DNA from: Promethearchaeota archaeon
GTDB taxonomy: Archaea > Asgardarchaeota > Thorarchaeia > Thorarchaeales > Thorarchaeaceae
Direction: 5' to 3'
NCBI GenBank assembly: GCA_014728035.1
Contig: WJMJ01000142.1
Span: 1 to 37,042, forward strand
DNA: 37,042 bases
Under the pieces are notes generated by a model. The model had not been told where the DNA came from, did no database searches, and was given only the letters and a program-made list of their open reading frames with translations. This document shows, piece after piece, positions 3,966-23,886 of the stretch (position 1 is its first letter; every line of letters begins with the position of its first letter). Both the position numbers and the translations under genes were made by a program.

Positions 3966-4424
3966 TTATTCGAACGGTGTTTCGGGCTCGTCTATTGAAA
4001 ATGCATAAAGGATAACCAGAATCACTATTAACATAGTGGGAAGTGGCCAGAACAGATTATAGGCTGGAGAACCTATTATACTAGCAGCACCAATACCAGT
4101 CAACACTATAGGACCAAATTCCAAAACAGAAGTTAGAATTAGAGTATAGTTTTTACTAATCAGTTCTTTAAAATAAGCAATAACGGTTACTAACAAAATA
4201 ATTCTCAGAATAAGGAAAGGAGTTCCAAGGATGATTTGACTTATGTCAAGGATTTGGAAACCTGAGAAATAGAAGGAGTGAATATATTCCCAAAACAAAG
4301 CACGAATGTGAAGATTACTGCTTCCCAACCCAATGCTTTGAATAATCACATATGGCGCTATGAGAATAGTAACCAGTAGTATCACAAGTATTTTTGTTAA
4401 TCTTGAAATCCCTTCGAACACCAA
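3966..4424 (-). CDS. Hypothetical membrane protein (about 4 TM)
   Basis: 152-aa hydrophobic ORF with acidic tail (DEPETPFE) and SD-like GGATGTG before TTG. Confidence 0.6.
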   Translation of the reverse strand: MVFEGISRLTKILVILLVTILIAPYVIIQSIGLGSSNLHIRALFWEYIHSFYFSGFQILDISQIILGTPFLILRIILLVTVIAYFKELISKNYTLILTSVLEFGPIVLTGIGAASIIGSPAYNLFWPLPTMLIVILVILYAFSIDEPETPFE

Positions 4425-4500
4425 AATTACACATCCTTAATGAATAGTCCTACTTTCAAAGATTAAGGATTCTGATGTAAGCAAAGATGGACTTGACTCT

Positions 4501-4533
4501 AAAAAGAAAACAGAGTCAGAGTTAATCCGACTC
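4501..4533 (-). terminator. Hairpin plus U-tract terminator of the Cys-rich microprotein
   Basis: Minus strand GAGTCGGA-TTAAC-TCTGACTC then TGTTTTCTTTTT; the G.U wobble works only on the minus strand. Confidence 0.7.
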
Positions 4534-4544
4534 AGTAATAGACA

Positions 4545-4709
4545 TTATTTCTTAAGTTTTAGAGAATCTCCACAGCAGCTAAATGAACAACCGCATGAGT
4601 CCTCGTCATTACAGCACTCAGTGCACTCAGATACAATCTTTATCTCCAAGCCACAATCACTACAATGGTATATCTGTCCTTTTTTCATATCATGACAATG
4701 TAATCCCAT
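4545..4709 (-). CDS. 54-aa Cys-rich metal-binding microprotein (desulforedoxin/metallothionein-like); absent from the ORF track
   Basis: Hand translation MGLHCHDMKKGQIYHCSDCGLEIKIVSECTECCNDEDSCGCSFSCCGDSLKLKK; 10 Cys and 3 His; SD GGATGTGTGA; own terminator. Confidence 0.85.
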   Translation of the reverse strand: MGLHCHDMKKGQIYHCSDCGLEIKIVSECTECCNDEDSCGCSFSCCGDSLKLKK

Positions 4710-4769
4710 AATCACACATCCATTGGCAAATGTTAGGATTTGGAGTATATTAATTCTATTTTAGCTACG

Positions 4770-4801
4770 AAAAAAGAGATAATGGAGCTCAGAGGAGCTC
4801 C
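4770..4801 (-). terminator. Hairpin plus U-tract terminator
   Basis: Minus strand GGAGCTC-CTCT-GAGCTCC then ATTATCTCTTTTTT, just after the stop at 4812. Confidence 0.65.
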
Positions 4802-4811
4802 TTAGTATTTT

Positions 4812-5275
4812 CTATTTACGTTTCTTTACAGCAATCAATATGACTATGACAAGTACGCCACCAATAATGAGATACCAAATATCTATTCCAGCCACATTGT
4901 CAGGTAATCCAAGAACATCAGGCAATGGAAGATTCGGAAGAAGTCCTCCATATGGAATGGTTGTCTTTGTAGTATCCATAGAAGAGGGAACCTCAATAGT
5001 GATGTTCTCTACATTGCTCCAAGTACTATATGCTTGATAGATATTAAAAGACCGAACTCTGAAATGGTATGTACCATTTGTCAGGGGTTCTTCCAGTGTC
5101 AAGGATGAAGTGTTCCAAGTATCCAACGTATTCAAGATAAGAAAGTAGCCAATAAATATAGAGAAGACACACGTAGCTCTAGAGCTTTCTTTATGACTAG
5201 TGTATTATTAATAATGAACGGTAAACACCATAGAATGCTGATTCCAATTAGAATGACAAGTTCTAGAGTCTGCAT
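4812..5275 (-). pseudogene. Remnant of a fibronectin-III-containing membrane-anchored surface protein
   Basis: 4812-5135 holds only the last FN3 strands (LTNGTYHFRVRSFNIYQAYSTWS) plus TM and KKRK tail. An out-of-frame 47-aa hydrophobic ORF (5275-5132, MQTLELVILIGISILWCLP) with SD lies upstream. Confidence 0.55.
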
Positions 5276-21796: not shown

Positions 21797-22243
21797 TTGT
21801 TGACATCCAAAGCTAGAAGAAAACCGAAACGAACTTGGTTAATGCCTCAAGAATTAGAAGTTTGGTATGTTTTACCAGCACTCAGAAGAGAGATAGCAAT
21901 GCTAATGATTGAGAAAGGTAGACCTCAAAAAAATATAGCTAAGATGTTGGGAGTCACCGAAGCCGCTGTAAGTCAATACAAATTGCCTCGCTCAAAAAGA
22001 TCCAGGGGAGACCAAATTACGATTCCCAAGGACCTCCATCACGAATTGGAGAAATCGGTAGATATTATGCTGGAAGCTTGGGACAAATTAGAGGATAAAG
22101 AGAACATTTACGAGGATATGACACATGAGATTAACCGTCTCATTAAAGTCTTGAGGGATGCTGGAGTTATGTGTGAGATTCATCGGGAACACTGCGTACA
22201 TGTCGCTGACGATTGCCAGGCATGTAAAGATGGTGCCAGATAA
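21797..22243 (+). CDS. Archaeal HTH regulator (COG2522-like) with C-terminal Cys/His motif
   Basis: VLPALRREIA...QKNIAKMLGVTEAAVSQY HTH; tail CEIHREHC...CQAC; stop overlaps the iscS ATG. Confidence 0.85.
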   Translation: MLTSKARRKPKRTWLMPQELEVWYVLPALRREIAMLMIEKGRPQKNIAKMLGVTEAAVSQYKLPRSKRSRGDQITIPKDLHHELEKSVDIMLEAWDKLEDKENIYEDMTHEINRLIKVLRDAGVMCEIHREHCVHVADDCQACKDGAR

Positions 22244-23451
22244 TGGGATACTTTGATAGTGCGAATTCAAGTAAGGTTGACGAACGAGTTATTGAAGCAA
22301 TGCTCCCCTATTTCAGGGATTTTTATGGAACTGCAGGACTAGAATTGAGTCATGGTCAAGATGTCGGTGCTGTAACAGGATTGGAAAACGCGAGAAGAAT
22401 AATTGCCGAGTCATTGGGAGCTGACCCGCGTTCAATTGTGTTTACATCTAATGTGACCGAGTCCAATAACCTCGCAATCAGAGGTGTTGCTCTTGCATCA
22501 AAGAGTACTCGAAAGCACGTTATTACAAGTCCAATCGAAACACAGTCTGTTTTAAAGACCATCCACTCATTACAAGAATTTGGATATGAGATTGAACAGG
22601 TCAGTGTTGATGAAACTGGTCTTATTGATTTAGAGCATCTTAAAGAGATAATTCGCAAGGATACATTTCTTATATCAATTCAACACGCAAATGGAGAGAT
22701 AGGAACAGTTCAGCCAATCAAAGAAATAGCAGAGATAACTTCGAGCAAAGGCATTATCTTCCATTCAGATGCTAGTCAGAGCTTTCTGAAAATACCTATT
22801 GATATAGAAGAAATCCCGTTAAACTTGCTTGGTTTTGATGCACACCGAATTCATGGTCCCAAAGGAATCGGCGCACTGTACATAAAGCGTGGCACTAAGA
22901 TAGTAAACATAATGTACGGGGGAGACGAAGAACGAAGATTACGCCCAGGCATAGAAAATATCCCTGGTGCAGTTGGATTTGCTAAAGCTATTGAAATATG
23001 GGATCATAAAGAAATTGACTATTTTAAAAAGCTAAGTACTCATCTCTCGAAGAAACTTGAAGAAAATCTCTCAGACTATAAAGTTACGGGGCACCAAGAA
23101 AAACGTTTACCAAATATCTATAGTATAGTAATCGAGCAAATTGAGGGCGAATCGATCCTAGTGCAATTAGATATGGATGGGCATTCCGTTTCTACAGGTT
23201 CAGCGTGTTCCTCAAAAACACTTCAAGGAAGTCACGTGTTGAAAGCAATCGGTTTGCCTCCTGAAATATCTCATGGCTCGGTTAGAATTTCATTCTCAAG
23301 ATTCAATACTATTGAAGAAATCGATGATTTTATCGAGTCTTTGGTGACTGCAGTTGAAAGACTTCGAGAATTTAGTCCATTAAAATCAGGTGCTTACTTC
23401 TCTAATGATGATACAGAAGACCATCACCATGATATTCCAGAAGAAAAGTGA
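22243..23451 (+). CDS. iscS: IscS/NifS-like protein with degenerate PLP site
   Basis: Class I desulfurase fold motifs (TESNN, EIGTVQPI, HSDASQ, GPKGIGALY, STGSACSS), but the canonical HK is HR and EH is ET. Confidence 0.9.
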   Translation: MGYFDSANSSKVDERVIEAMLPYFRDFYGTAGLELSHGQDVGAVTGLENARRIIAESLGADPRSIVFTSNVTESNNLAIRGVALASKSTRKHVITSPIETQSVLKTIHSLQEFGYEIEQVSVDETGLIDLEHLKEIIRKDTFLISIQHANGEIGTVQPIKEIAEITSSKGIIFHSDASQSFLKIPIDIEEIPLNLLGFDAHRIHGPKGIGALYIKRGTKIVNIMYGGDEERRLRPGIENIPGAVGFAKAIEIWDHKEIDYFKKLSTHLSKKLEENLSDYKVTGHQEKRLPNIYSIVIEQIEGESILVQLDMDGHSVSTGSACSSKTLQGSHVLKAIGLPPEISHGSVRISFSRFNTIEEIDDFIESLVTAVERLREFSPLKSGAYFSNDDTEDHHHDIPEEK

Positions 23452-23514
23452 TGATATGCCATCAGAGAAAACAATATACATACAGTGTATGCGAAAAAAG
23501 TAGAGGAATTCCTA

Positions 23515-23886
23515 ATGGCCTACTCCAAAAAAGTAATGGAAAATTTTAGAGACCCAAAAAACATGGGAAAAATGGAAGATCCTGACGGTGTAGGAACCGT
23601 GGGAAACCCTGTTTGTGGAGATATGATGAAGTTATACATTCGAGTTGTAGATGATGTTATCAAAGATATCAAAGTCGAAACATTCGGATGTGTCGCGGCA
23701 ATAGCTACTTCTTCAATGACAACTCAGATGGCAATTGGGAAGACAATTGCTGAAGCAAAAGAAATCACTCGTGGAAAAGTAGCTGAAGCATTGGACGGAC
23801 TTCCCCCACAGAAAATGCATTGTAGCAATTTAGCCGCAGAAGCACTTCAAAAAGCAATTGAAGATTATGAGTCAAGAAAAAAATAG
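23515..23886 (+). CDS. iscU: Fe-S scaffold IscU/NifU-N
   Basis: GNPVCGD, TFGCVAAIA, LPPQKMHCS; start ATG 23515 after GAGGA. Confidence 0.95.
   Translation: MAYSKKVMENFRDPKNMGKMEDPDGVGTVGNPVCGDMMKLYIRVVDDVIKDIKVETFGCVAAIATSSMTTQMAIGKTIAEAKEITRGKVAEALDGLPPQKMHCSNLAAEALQKAIEDYESRKK

Follow-up and report, generated by a model that had tools for sequence, protein, structure and literature searches.

We describe a lineage of type I cysteine-desulfurase homologs, found in one Asgard family, in which the Schiff-base lysine and several other PLP contacts have been replaced in a protein that is conserved, under purifying selection and encoded beside an intact IscU. This protein, hereafter the Thor-type IscS, is probably a non-catalytic partner of IscU that lends it a loop cysteine, Cys322, with sulfur coming from sulfide or from a relay. 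Lysine-less IscS proteins are already known (in Archaeoglobus fulgidus, and as IscS1 in Methanosarcina acetivorans); the present one is a new lineage, not a new kind of system, and no description of the Thorarchaeial clade was found in the literature searched. A lysine-less IscS raises the question of how minimal archaeal IscS-IscU units are supplied with sulfur and iron, and this clade provides a natural experiment: strong conservation of the protein goes together with a cofactor pocket stripped beyond that of A. fulgidus IscS, the only case studied so far. The clade should be useful to Fe-S specialists, and leaves the overall picture unchanged.

The window (37,042 nucleotides, from contig WJMJ01000142.1 of assembly GCA_014728035.1, Thorarchaeaceae) holds the genes in the order regulator, Thor-type IscS and IscU (Table 1), the regulator stop overlapping the IscS start in the sequence TAATG. 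Neighbouring genes in the window, besides the regulator, encode an epimerase, a TPR protein, Sir2, a PAS kinase, an ECH and Amt. None within the window corresponds to HscAB, Fdx, IscA or other accessory isc genes, and IscS and IscU form a two-gene unit.

Table 1. Coordinates of the genes and sites discussed, numbered along the window.
Feature	Position	Strand	Remarks
HTH regulator	21797..22243	+	C-terminal motif C-x2-H-x3-C-x6-C-x2-C; weak HTH matches
Thor-type IscS (type I cysteine-desulfurase fold without the PLP lysine)	22243..23451	+	402 aa; Aminotran_5, PF00266
Thr100	22540..22542	+	codon ACA; site of the PLP-stacking His
D199-A-H201-R202	22837..22848	+	in place of the S-x-H-K Schiff-base motif; Asp199 GAT (22837-22839), Arg202 CGA (22846-22848)
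Ile237 (RPGI)	22951..22953	+	site of Thr in RSGT
Cys322, mobile loop STGSACSSKT	23206..23208	+	codon TGT
Acidic His-rich C-terminal tail, residues 383-402, ...DDTEDHHHDIPEEK	23389..23454	+	disordered by pLDDT; then TGA TGA
IscU scaffold	23515..23886	+	123 aa from likely start ATG 23515; ORF opening is GTG 23485

The protein has the class V aminotransferase fold, matching Aminotran_5 with an E-value of 1.6e-68. The best NCBIfam models are NifS (TIGR03402) and IscS (TIGR02006), but it falls short of the equivalog cut-off of either (404.9 vs 530.75 bits and 341.1 vs 643.2 bits, respectively). Residues were matched by HMMER alignment to solved desulfurases, which places ahRi under ahKm, ieTqs under ieHhs, lRpGIen under vRaGTen and yfDSANSS under yvDHAATT. 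The window copy has arginine at the site of the Schiff-base lysine of type I cysteine desulfurases, and the set formed by the PLP-stacking His, the phosphate-binding Ser and Thr and the Gln at O3' is broken by Thr100, Asp199 and Ile237; we take the roles of sites 100, 179, 199 and 237 to be those seen in the E. coli IscS structure. The nucleophilic cysteine on its long mobile loop is retained. Every feature that the initial annotation had read from the letters, namely Arg202 (CGA), Thr100, the RPGI and YFDSANSS motifs, Cys322, the DHHHD tail and the intact IscU, was borne out by the alignment and by the codons read from the DNA. Read errors are ruled out as the source of the changes, since lysine is missing from every one of the ~60 related protein clusters.

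A comparison of 56 full-length clade members with 141 lysine-bearing relatives, the latter picked for having the lysine, revealed that the sites near-invariant in the relatives and relaxed or switched in the clade are mostly PLP contacts (His100, Gln179, Ser199, Lys202 and Thr237). Position 202 is H in 35 members, L in 11, R in 8 and V in 2, and never K. Position 100, a His in 140 of the 141 relatives, is T, V, H, S or R; position 237, a Thr in 137 of them, is V or I; and Ser199 has given way to an Asp fixed in 96% of the clade. Gln179 is kept in the window copy, and 33 of the 56 members have H there. Cys322 is invariant in 180 aligned homologs, bar one row gapped at that column. Conservation of residues 202, 100 and 322 had been put forward as a check; it holds for Cys322, and positions 202 and 100 vary within the clade. 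The motifs HGPKG and RRLRPG are conserved across the clade, and in the pocket Thr72, Asn150, Asp176, His201 and the substrate-carboxylate residue Arg348 are invariant, so that the pocket has been remodelled rather than erased. The invariance of these residues hints that it may still bind something.

Absence of the lysine is common to ~60 protein clusters, all from a single Asgard family; the Thor-type IscS was found in 24 of 76 sampled genomes of that family and in 0 of 225 genomes from 29 other families. Half of the family's genera are without the IscS-IscU unit, which must therefore be dispensable. For the clade pairs with DNA available, pN was 0.12-0.25 and pS 0.80-0.91, with no stop codons. 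Synonymous sites were saturated in all of these pairs, and thus the proposed dN/dS comparison could give no omega, yet pN is far below pS. These data uphold the idea of a conserved pseudo-desulfurase under purifying selection and tied to an intact IscU. Simple decay, with orthologs keeping the lysine, was not seen (0 of ~60 clusters), and a decaying pseudogene is ruled out by the conservation over these clusters together with the low pN. More widely, lysine is missing from 16 of the 150 nearest clusters (50% identity clustering), so the desulfurase family has repeatedly lost catalysis while keeping the Cys loop. This recurrence favours a role of the IscS body in cluster assembly that is independent of catalysis.

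The neighbouring IscU matches NifU_N with an E-value of 5.6e-45; against NifU_clost it scores 188.5 bits, just over the equivalog cut-off of 187.9. Its ligands (Cys, Asp, Cys, Lys, His, Cys) are all invariant. Of the 18 loci with room for it, 14 have it downstream of IscS in the same orientation. This second, short IscU was found only in genomes with the Thor-type IscS, and five genomes of 96-98% completeness without that IscS carry a fused IscU only, a pattern of joint gain and loss.

The Thor-type IscS thus comes and goes with its own IscU, and it coexists in one cell with several other Fe-S genes. Elsewhere in the genome, on a separate contig, is a true A. fulgidus-type Lys-to-Asp IscS2-IscU operon (locus L002, SSND motif), which is family-wide and carries TusA and DsrE genes, and SufBC is present as well. 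The L002 protein scores 483 bits to the A. fulgidus structure 4eb5, against 309 for the window protein, which supports a different lineage for the latter. Our search for an active-looking IscS or SufS recovered a stand-alone lysine-bearing SufS-like gene (motifs SVHKMCGPSG and GAHC), unlinked and with no partner gene beside it, and no lysine-bearing type I paralog in this 97.9% complete genome. The suggestion that the window protein is the dead half of a heterodimer fails for lack of any such paralog. In maximum likelihood trees the Thor-type clade and the A. fulgidus type form separate clades with support of 98-100, and the Thor-type clade has a 2-residue loop insertion, missing from the A. 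fulgidus type, that it shares with a clade in which the lysine is replaced by Thr. An AU test in which the Thor and A. fulgidus types were constrained to one clade did not reject this arrangement (p = 0.41, delta lnL 8.5), so the tree alone is no proof of independent loss. The initial annotation had proposed an independent and more complete loss of PLP chemistry. Independence from the Archaeoglobus lineage is supported by the trees and the insertion, with the AU test leaving a single clade possible; as for completeness, more PLP contacts are indeed lost than in the A. fulgidus type (His100, Thr237, Ser199, Lys202), but this is not unique, the Lys-to-Thr clade being equally degenerate.

Among characterised proteins, A. 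fulgidus IscS2 is similar in being a type I fold without the Schiff-base lysine, with the loop Cys kept, encoded beside an intact IscU in an anaerobic archaeon, although the two are not orthologs. A. fulgidus IscS, whose Lys is changed to Asp, is devoid of desulfurase activity and contributes its Cys as a ligand to the [2Fe-2S] cluster on IscU (PMC8918507, PMC13066941, PMC7585200); structures of IscS2-IscU (PDB 4eb5, 4eb7, 4hvk) and of a D199K variant (4r5f) are available. In the A. fulgidus type, His100 and Ser199 are retained, position 237 is Ser or Thr, and His201 and Arg348 have become Asn and Gln, respectively, whereas the Thor type has lost His100, Ser199 and Thr237 and kept His201 and Arg348. 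The Thor type differs further by its loop insertion, a His-rich acidic tail, a dedicated upstream regulator and the absence of TusA and DsrE. M. acetivorans IscS1, likened here by description, is also a lysine-less IscS paralog alongside other Fe-S systems, in that case beside an active IscS2; its authors proposed that it acts like A. fulgidus IscS, and it formed inclusion bodies (PMC7585200).

At 46-50% identity, the Lys-to-Thr, His-to-Asp clade of Chloroflexota, Halanaerobiales and some Asgard archaea is the nearest large group without the lysine; no description of it was found in the literature searched. Besides the insertion, it shares with the Thor type a Gln179-to-His change and V, I or L in place of Thr237. 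It is nevertheless separate in the tree (support 98), with lysine-bearing rows between; its Asp is at position 100 rather than 199, it has no His-rich tail, and its operons, TusA-DsrE-IscS-IscU::DUF59, include sulfur-carrier genes and an IscU-DUF59 fusion. A two-gene unit of an IscS-like and an IscU-like protein, its locus free of chaperone, ferredoxin and A-type carrier genes, also recalls MisS-MisU, the minimal iron-sulfur system (MIS) of Garcia et al. 2022. As summarised in PMC13066941, MisS is a cysteine desulfurase, which the window protein probably cannot be; this comparison is made by description. The fold (TM ~0.9), the long mobile Cys loop and the pairing with IscU are shared with active IscS (E. 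coli 1p3w and 3lvl) and NFS1 (human 5wkp); compared with these, the Thor type is missing the internal-aldimine lysine (Lys206 in E. coli IscS, PMC2854127) together with another three or four PLP contacts.

The predicted fold is intact. The AF2 model of the Thor-type IscS has a pLDDT of 90.9 and TM scores of 0.88-0.96 to IscS, NFS1, NifS and A. fulgidus IscS (0.89-0.96 to 4eb5), and the loop 321-327 has pLDDT below 50, which fits the mobile type I loop. Prediction of the IscS-IscU complex gave weak support for a physical complex, scoring 0.37 against 0.00 for the best control. Of 80 solved complexes, 58 passed the same mark, as did 2 of 110 mismatched pairs; at 0.60 or under, only 7 of the solved complexes passed, along with both mismatches. 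At least 56% of contacts agreed between runs, with partner pLDDT of at least 87; the pass may reflect likeness, since similar complexes are already solved (4eb5, 3lvl).

We suggest that the Thor-type IscS descends from an Asgard type I cysteine desulfurase (IscS/MisS) and that, with the PLP contacts so altered, it would no longer hold PLP nor take sulfur from cysteine. The desulfurase fold and mobile Cys322 loop would have been kept, and probably the IscU-docking surface as well, making the protein a structural partner of the adjacent IscU as in A. fulgidus IscS2. In such a complex a nascent [2Fe-2S] cluster would be held by the three IscU cysteines and Cys322, with sulfur supplied by free sulfide or by another carrier instead of by IscS catalysis, and the regulator, IscS and IscU would constitute a second, accessory Fe-S assembly unit beside the A. 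fulgidus-type operon and SufBC. Loss of the lysine is by itself no proof of an empty pocket, because non-covalent binding of PMP or PLP persists in A. fulgidus IscS (PMC8918507). Similarly, minimal IscSU from M. thermoacetophila and from A. fulgidus did not complement E. coli even with sulfide (bioRxiv 10.1101/2024.03.20.586028), which leaves the scaffold-plus-sulfide model unproven even for the A. fulgidus precedent. The regulator is also more tightly linked to IscS (21 of 21 loci) than IscU is, which speaks against a role primarily as IscU partner.

It is possible, if rather unlikely, that Cys322 instead acts as a persulfide shuttle, accepting sulfane sulfur from SufS or a TusA/DsrE relay as active donor and handing it to IscU; of the desulfurase reaction, the protein would then retain no more than the second half. 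Potential donors exist in the SufS-like gene and in the TusA and DsrE of the A. fulgidus-type operon, sister and cousin lysine-less lineages have TusA or TusA-DsrE in the same operon, and the long mobile loop has been retained; but no TusA, DsrE or SufE/SufU was found in the Thor-type operon at the 21 loci examined, and SufS is unlinked and partnerless. The tight association with the regulator might suggest, very improbably in our view, that the Thor-type IscS mainly serves this Cys/His-tailed HTH protein and not Fe-S supply in general, for instance as loader or sensor of the regulator's cluster. The regulator, which has only weak HTH matches (sigma-70 r4, Tfx) and whose C126, H129, C133, C140 and C143 are invariant in 4 orthologs, lies immediately upstream on the same strand at every locus, and in part of genus g12 it stays adjacent where IscU is displaced 10-14 kb downstream on the same contig. 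It is, however, found in 76 of 86 genomes from this family, some without the Thor-type IscS, and keeps its syntenic place where IscS-IscU is absent; a homolog with 32% identity stands first in an IscS-IscU-TusA-DsrE operon whose IscS bears the lysine; and it is the short IscU, not the regulator, that the Thor-type IscS tracks. At locus L012 the regulator is partly masked by N.

The former PLP pocket could also have been repurposed for a metal. The remodelled pocket (Asp176, Asp199, His201 and often His179 and His202), the DHHHD tail or both might bind Fe(II) and make the protein an iron donor or chaperone for IscU, a reading that we consider improbable. One might speculate, with equally little confidence, that the Thor-type IscS is the missing iron-handling component of the minimal archaeal ISC unit, its pocket and DHHHD...DDW tail passing Fe(II) to IscU and sulfide entering directly. 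The clade-specific fixation of Asp199 and the prevalence of His at position 202 are in keeping with this, as is the tail, which in the window copy reads ...TEDHHHDIPEEK, then TGA TGA, and is predicted to be disordered (residues 383-402, pLDDT below 50). It has HH within the last 16 residues in 44 of the 56 clade members, and a His-rich acidic tail occurs also in the lysine-less sister P0127 and is absent from ~200 other homologs examined. Yet positions 179 (H/Q) and 202 (H/L/R/V) vary, so that no fixed metal site can be defined, and the tail of the basal subclade is poor in His. Finally, it is extremely improbable that we are dealing with a residual enzyme holding PLP or PMP with no Schiff base, with a pseudogene or with an inactive subunit of a heterodimer. 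The binding of PMP by A. fulgidus IscS despite its missing lysine, and the conservation of Asp176, Thr72 and Arg348, would suit the first of these, but the stacking His and the phosphate-binding Thr and Ser are all lost and an Asp occupies the phosphate site; the selection data and the gene content of the genome argue against the other two.

The extreme C-terminus ends in [DEN][DEN]W in 47 of the 56 clade members, the window copy being without the terminal DDW. In eukaryotic CIA, docking occurs through a C-terminal tripeptide (PMC10245660; bioRxiv 10.64898/2026.04.06.716496), and we considered whether a [DE][DE]W-COOH tail could dock to the genome's MIP18/CIA2-like protein. This is unlikely, given the missing terminal Trp in the window copy and a mismatch of phyletic patterns: in genus g14 the Thor-type IscS is present in 5 of 6 genomes and a MIP18-like gene in 0 of 7, and genera g4, g6, g11 and g13 have MIP18 and no Thor-type IscS. 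Five other ORFs of at least 100 aa in the genome end in [DE][DE]W (a raw count), one of them ferredoxin-like.

IscS*, the lysine-less protein of the window, has NifS and IscS as its best family models, with scores far under the curated cut-offs (405 versus 531 bits and 341 versus 643 bits). Residue-wise alignment to solved desulfurases, read together with the DNA, bore out the initial annotation: the Schiff-base lysine is replaced by Arg202 (CGA at 22846-22848), the PLP-stacking histidine by Thr100 (codon ACA) and RSGT by RPGI, the N-terminal motif is YFDSANSS, and Cys322 is kept within STGSACSS. The DHHHD tail is also present (...DHHHDIPEEK). For reference, the internal aldimine of E. coli IscS involves Lys206 (PMC2854127). 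IscS* is predicted to keep an intact fold (pLDDT 90.9; TM 0.88-0.96 to IscS, NFS1 and A. fulgidus IscS), with disorder confined to residues 321-327 (the Cys loop) and 383-402 (the tail).

Table. Genes of the IscS* locus and of the second IscS-IscU operon of the same genome.
Feature	Location	Strand	Remarks
HTH regulator	21797-22243	+	ends on IscS* start (TAATG), translationally coupled
IscS*	22243-23451	+	402 aa, class V aminotransferase fold
iscU	23485-23886	+	probable start ATG 23515
TusA-like (82 aa), DsrE-like (120 aa), IscS2, IscU fusion operon	L002 (contig C95) 868-3455

A search of 5.8 billion proteins returned about 60 clusters at 61-80% identity to IscS* (the Thor clade), those with a named source being Thorarchaeota, Hermodarchaeota or Promethearchaeota MAGs, with a steep fall to about 50% identity in the matches that follow; the 50%-identity library merges all of them into a single cluster, after which the score falls from 561 to 383 bits. 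An alignment of homologs at residues 202, 100 and 322 had been proposed. Lysine occurs in none of the 56 full-length members, position 202 being H (35), L (11), R (8) or V (2), which agrees with the early view that a read error was unlikely; position 100 varies among T, V, H, S and R, and the members retain the Cys loop, HGPKG and RRLRPG. The dN/dS comparison, also proposed, was blunted by saturation of synonymous sites, but in five orthologous gene pairs pN is only 0.12-0.25 against a pS of 0.80-0.91, with no stops. Clade-wide conservation and pN far below the saturated pS rule out decay, and the changes are not sequencing errors.

We compared the 56 members with 141 lysine-bearing representatives, calling relaxed those positions whose conservation is 85% or more among the representatives but loosened in the clade. 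Seven catalytic-domain positions are relaxed (64, 100, 179, 194, 202, 237, 243), and fixed switches include Ser199 to Asp, and AT to NS and N to T in the N-terminal loops. Four of the seven (100, 179, 202, 237), as well as the switched 199, correspond to PLP contacts of the E. coli IscS structure. Thr72, Asn150, Asp176, His201 and Arg348 are invariant in the clade, and the pocket is therefore remodelled rather than erased.

Lysine-less IscS was already known from A. fulgidus, with structures and assays (PMC8918507), and M. acetivorans IscS1 had been noted as lysine-less (PMC7585200). Compared with A. fulgidus IscS, the Thor clade, undescribed in the literature searched, is a distinct, more stripped variant, with a tail and a regulator of its own. 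The more complete loss of PLP chemistry initially claimed holds against the A. fulgidus type (Lys to Asp), in which fewer contacts are changed, but not against the widespread Lys-to-Thr, His-to-Asp lineage, whose pocket is equally degenerate. The latter is found in TusA-DsrE-IscS-IscU::DUF59 operons of Chloroflexota and Asgard archaea (L033, 3001-4820; L034, 2757-4580).

Lysine is missing from 16 of the 150 nearest 50%-identity clusters, and its loss is therefore recurrent in the IscS family. The Thor clade has a support of 100 in both FastTree and IQ-TREE. Its sister is P0127, a Lys-to-Leu protein from an IscS-IscU-TusA operon, with an HHH acidic tail; the next branch in FastTree is the lysine-bearing pair P0071/P0094 (95), a fork that IQ-TREE leaves open. 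Elsewhere in the trees, whose backbone is weak, fall the A. fulgidus type (98-99) and the Lys-to-Thr clade (98). A two-residue insertion in the GNPSS-H loop is common to the Thor clade, the Lys-to-Thr clade, P0127, P0132, P0147 and four lysine-bearing rows (P0067, P0071, P0086, P0094), and is missing from the A. fulgidus type and at least 122 lysine-bearing representatives; the Thor-side loss would therefore fall among the proteins with the insertion and be distinct from that of the A. fulgidus lineage. The independent loss originally suggested is thus favoured by the ML trees and the insertion, but an AU test did not reject a tree that unites the Thor clade with the A. fulgidus type (p 0.41).

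The iscU gene is intact, as first read: it reaches an equivalog cut-off, with every cluster ligand present. Among 21 orthologous loci, IscU lies downstream of IscS* in 14 of the 18 with room. An insertion in part of genus g12 separates the two genes, and in the three g12 genomes checked IscU lies further along the contig, 10-14 kb downstream; there IscS* is followed by a rubrerythrin-like gene (L043 in genome G170, 4256-5192). In a Hermodarchaeota-labelled MAG an Arf-like small GTPase comes after IscS* (L014, 2156-2671), and in this case too IscU is not the next gene. Of 76 genomes sampled from a single GTDB family, 24 carry a member of the Thor clade (8 of 16 genera); none was found in 225 genomes from 29 other Asgard families. 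Genomes without IscS* have a single fused IscU, and those with it an additional short one, so that the two genes travel together and were apparently gained or lost jointly; at the syntenic locus (epimerase-Sir2-regulator-ECH) the pair is simply missing. One genome without IscS* has a lysine-bearing IscS-like frame broken by one TGA and one TAG (L024, contig C16 of G103), which may be a pseudogene or contamination.

The regulator is instead family-wide (76 of 86 genomes), holding its syntenic place where the pair is absent, and stands directly upstream of IscS* on the same strand in all 21 loci. Its invariant C-x2-H-x3-C-x6-C-x2-C tail makes it a candidate Fe-S-sensing regulator unrelated to IscR. 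In another Asgard lineage, a 32%-identical homolog stands at the head of an IscS-IscU-TusA-DsrE operon whose IscS has the lysine (its near-identical sister protein, P0094, is labelled Heimdallarchaeota), so the operon design is older than the lysine loss.

The genome of the window (97.9% complete) was searched for an active IscS or SufS, as had been advised. It has one SufB, a SufS-like gene that stands alone and keeps both the lysine and the GAHC cysteine, and no lysine-bearing type I gene. A second SufS-like (type II) gene lacks the lysine (L004, contig C9, minus strand, 410-aa frame, FSGNIGFFGPPG); it keeps a Cys in SGLLCA and is the third lysine-less class V protein of this genome. The IscS2 of L002 has the motif SSNDLYGPKG and matches A. 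fulgidus IscS2 with 483 bits, and the IscU beside it bears an additional C-terminal domain of about 140 aa; this genome therefore has both the A. fulgidus type and that of the window. IscS2 has IscU beside it in all five relatives checked.

It is rather likely, on the A. fulgidus model, that IscS* is a non-catalytic partner of IscU, whose Cys322 would complete the ligand set of the cluster, with sulfur supplied by sulfide or a carrier. Prediction of the IscS*-IscU complex lends this pairing weak support (0.37 versus 0.00 for the best control; contact agreement at least 56%, partner pLDDT at least 87), at a mark that 58 of 80 solved complexes and 2 of 110 mismatched pairs attain, 7 and both of them, respectively, at or below 0.60; since like complexes are already solved, the pass may reflect that likeness. 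The minimal A. fulgidus IscSU failed to complement E. coli whether or not sulfide was supplied (bioRxiv 10.1101/2024.03.20.586028), which calls for caution even for the precedent.

A persulfide shuttle, in which SufS or TusA/DsrE would feed IscS*, has possible donors in this genome and is a clearly less likely alternative. The Asp/His pocket and His-rich tail might instead serve metal handling, which we consider improbable. A role centred on the regulator, constantly adjacent to IscS* but also kept where IscS* is absent, is more doubtful still. Hardly credible at all is residual PLP or PMP chemistry, decay or a heterodimer; the idea of a dead heterodimer half falls because the genome has no lysine-bearing type I gene.

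The tails of the 56 full-length members have HH within the last 16 residues in 44 cases, end in [DEN][DEN]W in 47 and hold a mean of about 8 acidic residues among the last 16. The tail in the window (23437-23460) reads PEEK, then TGA TGA; at the place of the orthologs' GAT GAT TGG stands GATGAT out of frame, as would be expected if a small indel had taken away the final Asp-Asp-Trp (DDW). Phyletic patterns show no link of the tail to the genome's MIP18/CIA2-like protein. Elsewhere in the genome, a ferredoxin-like ORF (CxxCxxxCP) on contig C71 (18865-19359, minus strand) ends in VEEW, and four further ORFs of at least 100 aa (one each on C25 and C37, two on C94) close with an acidic run and a Trp.
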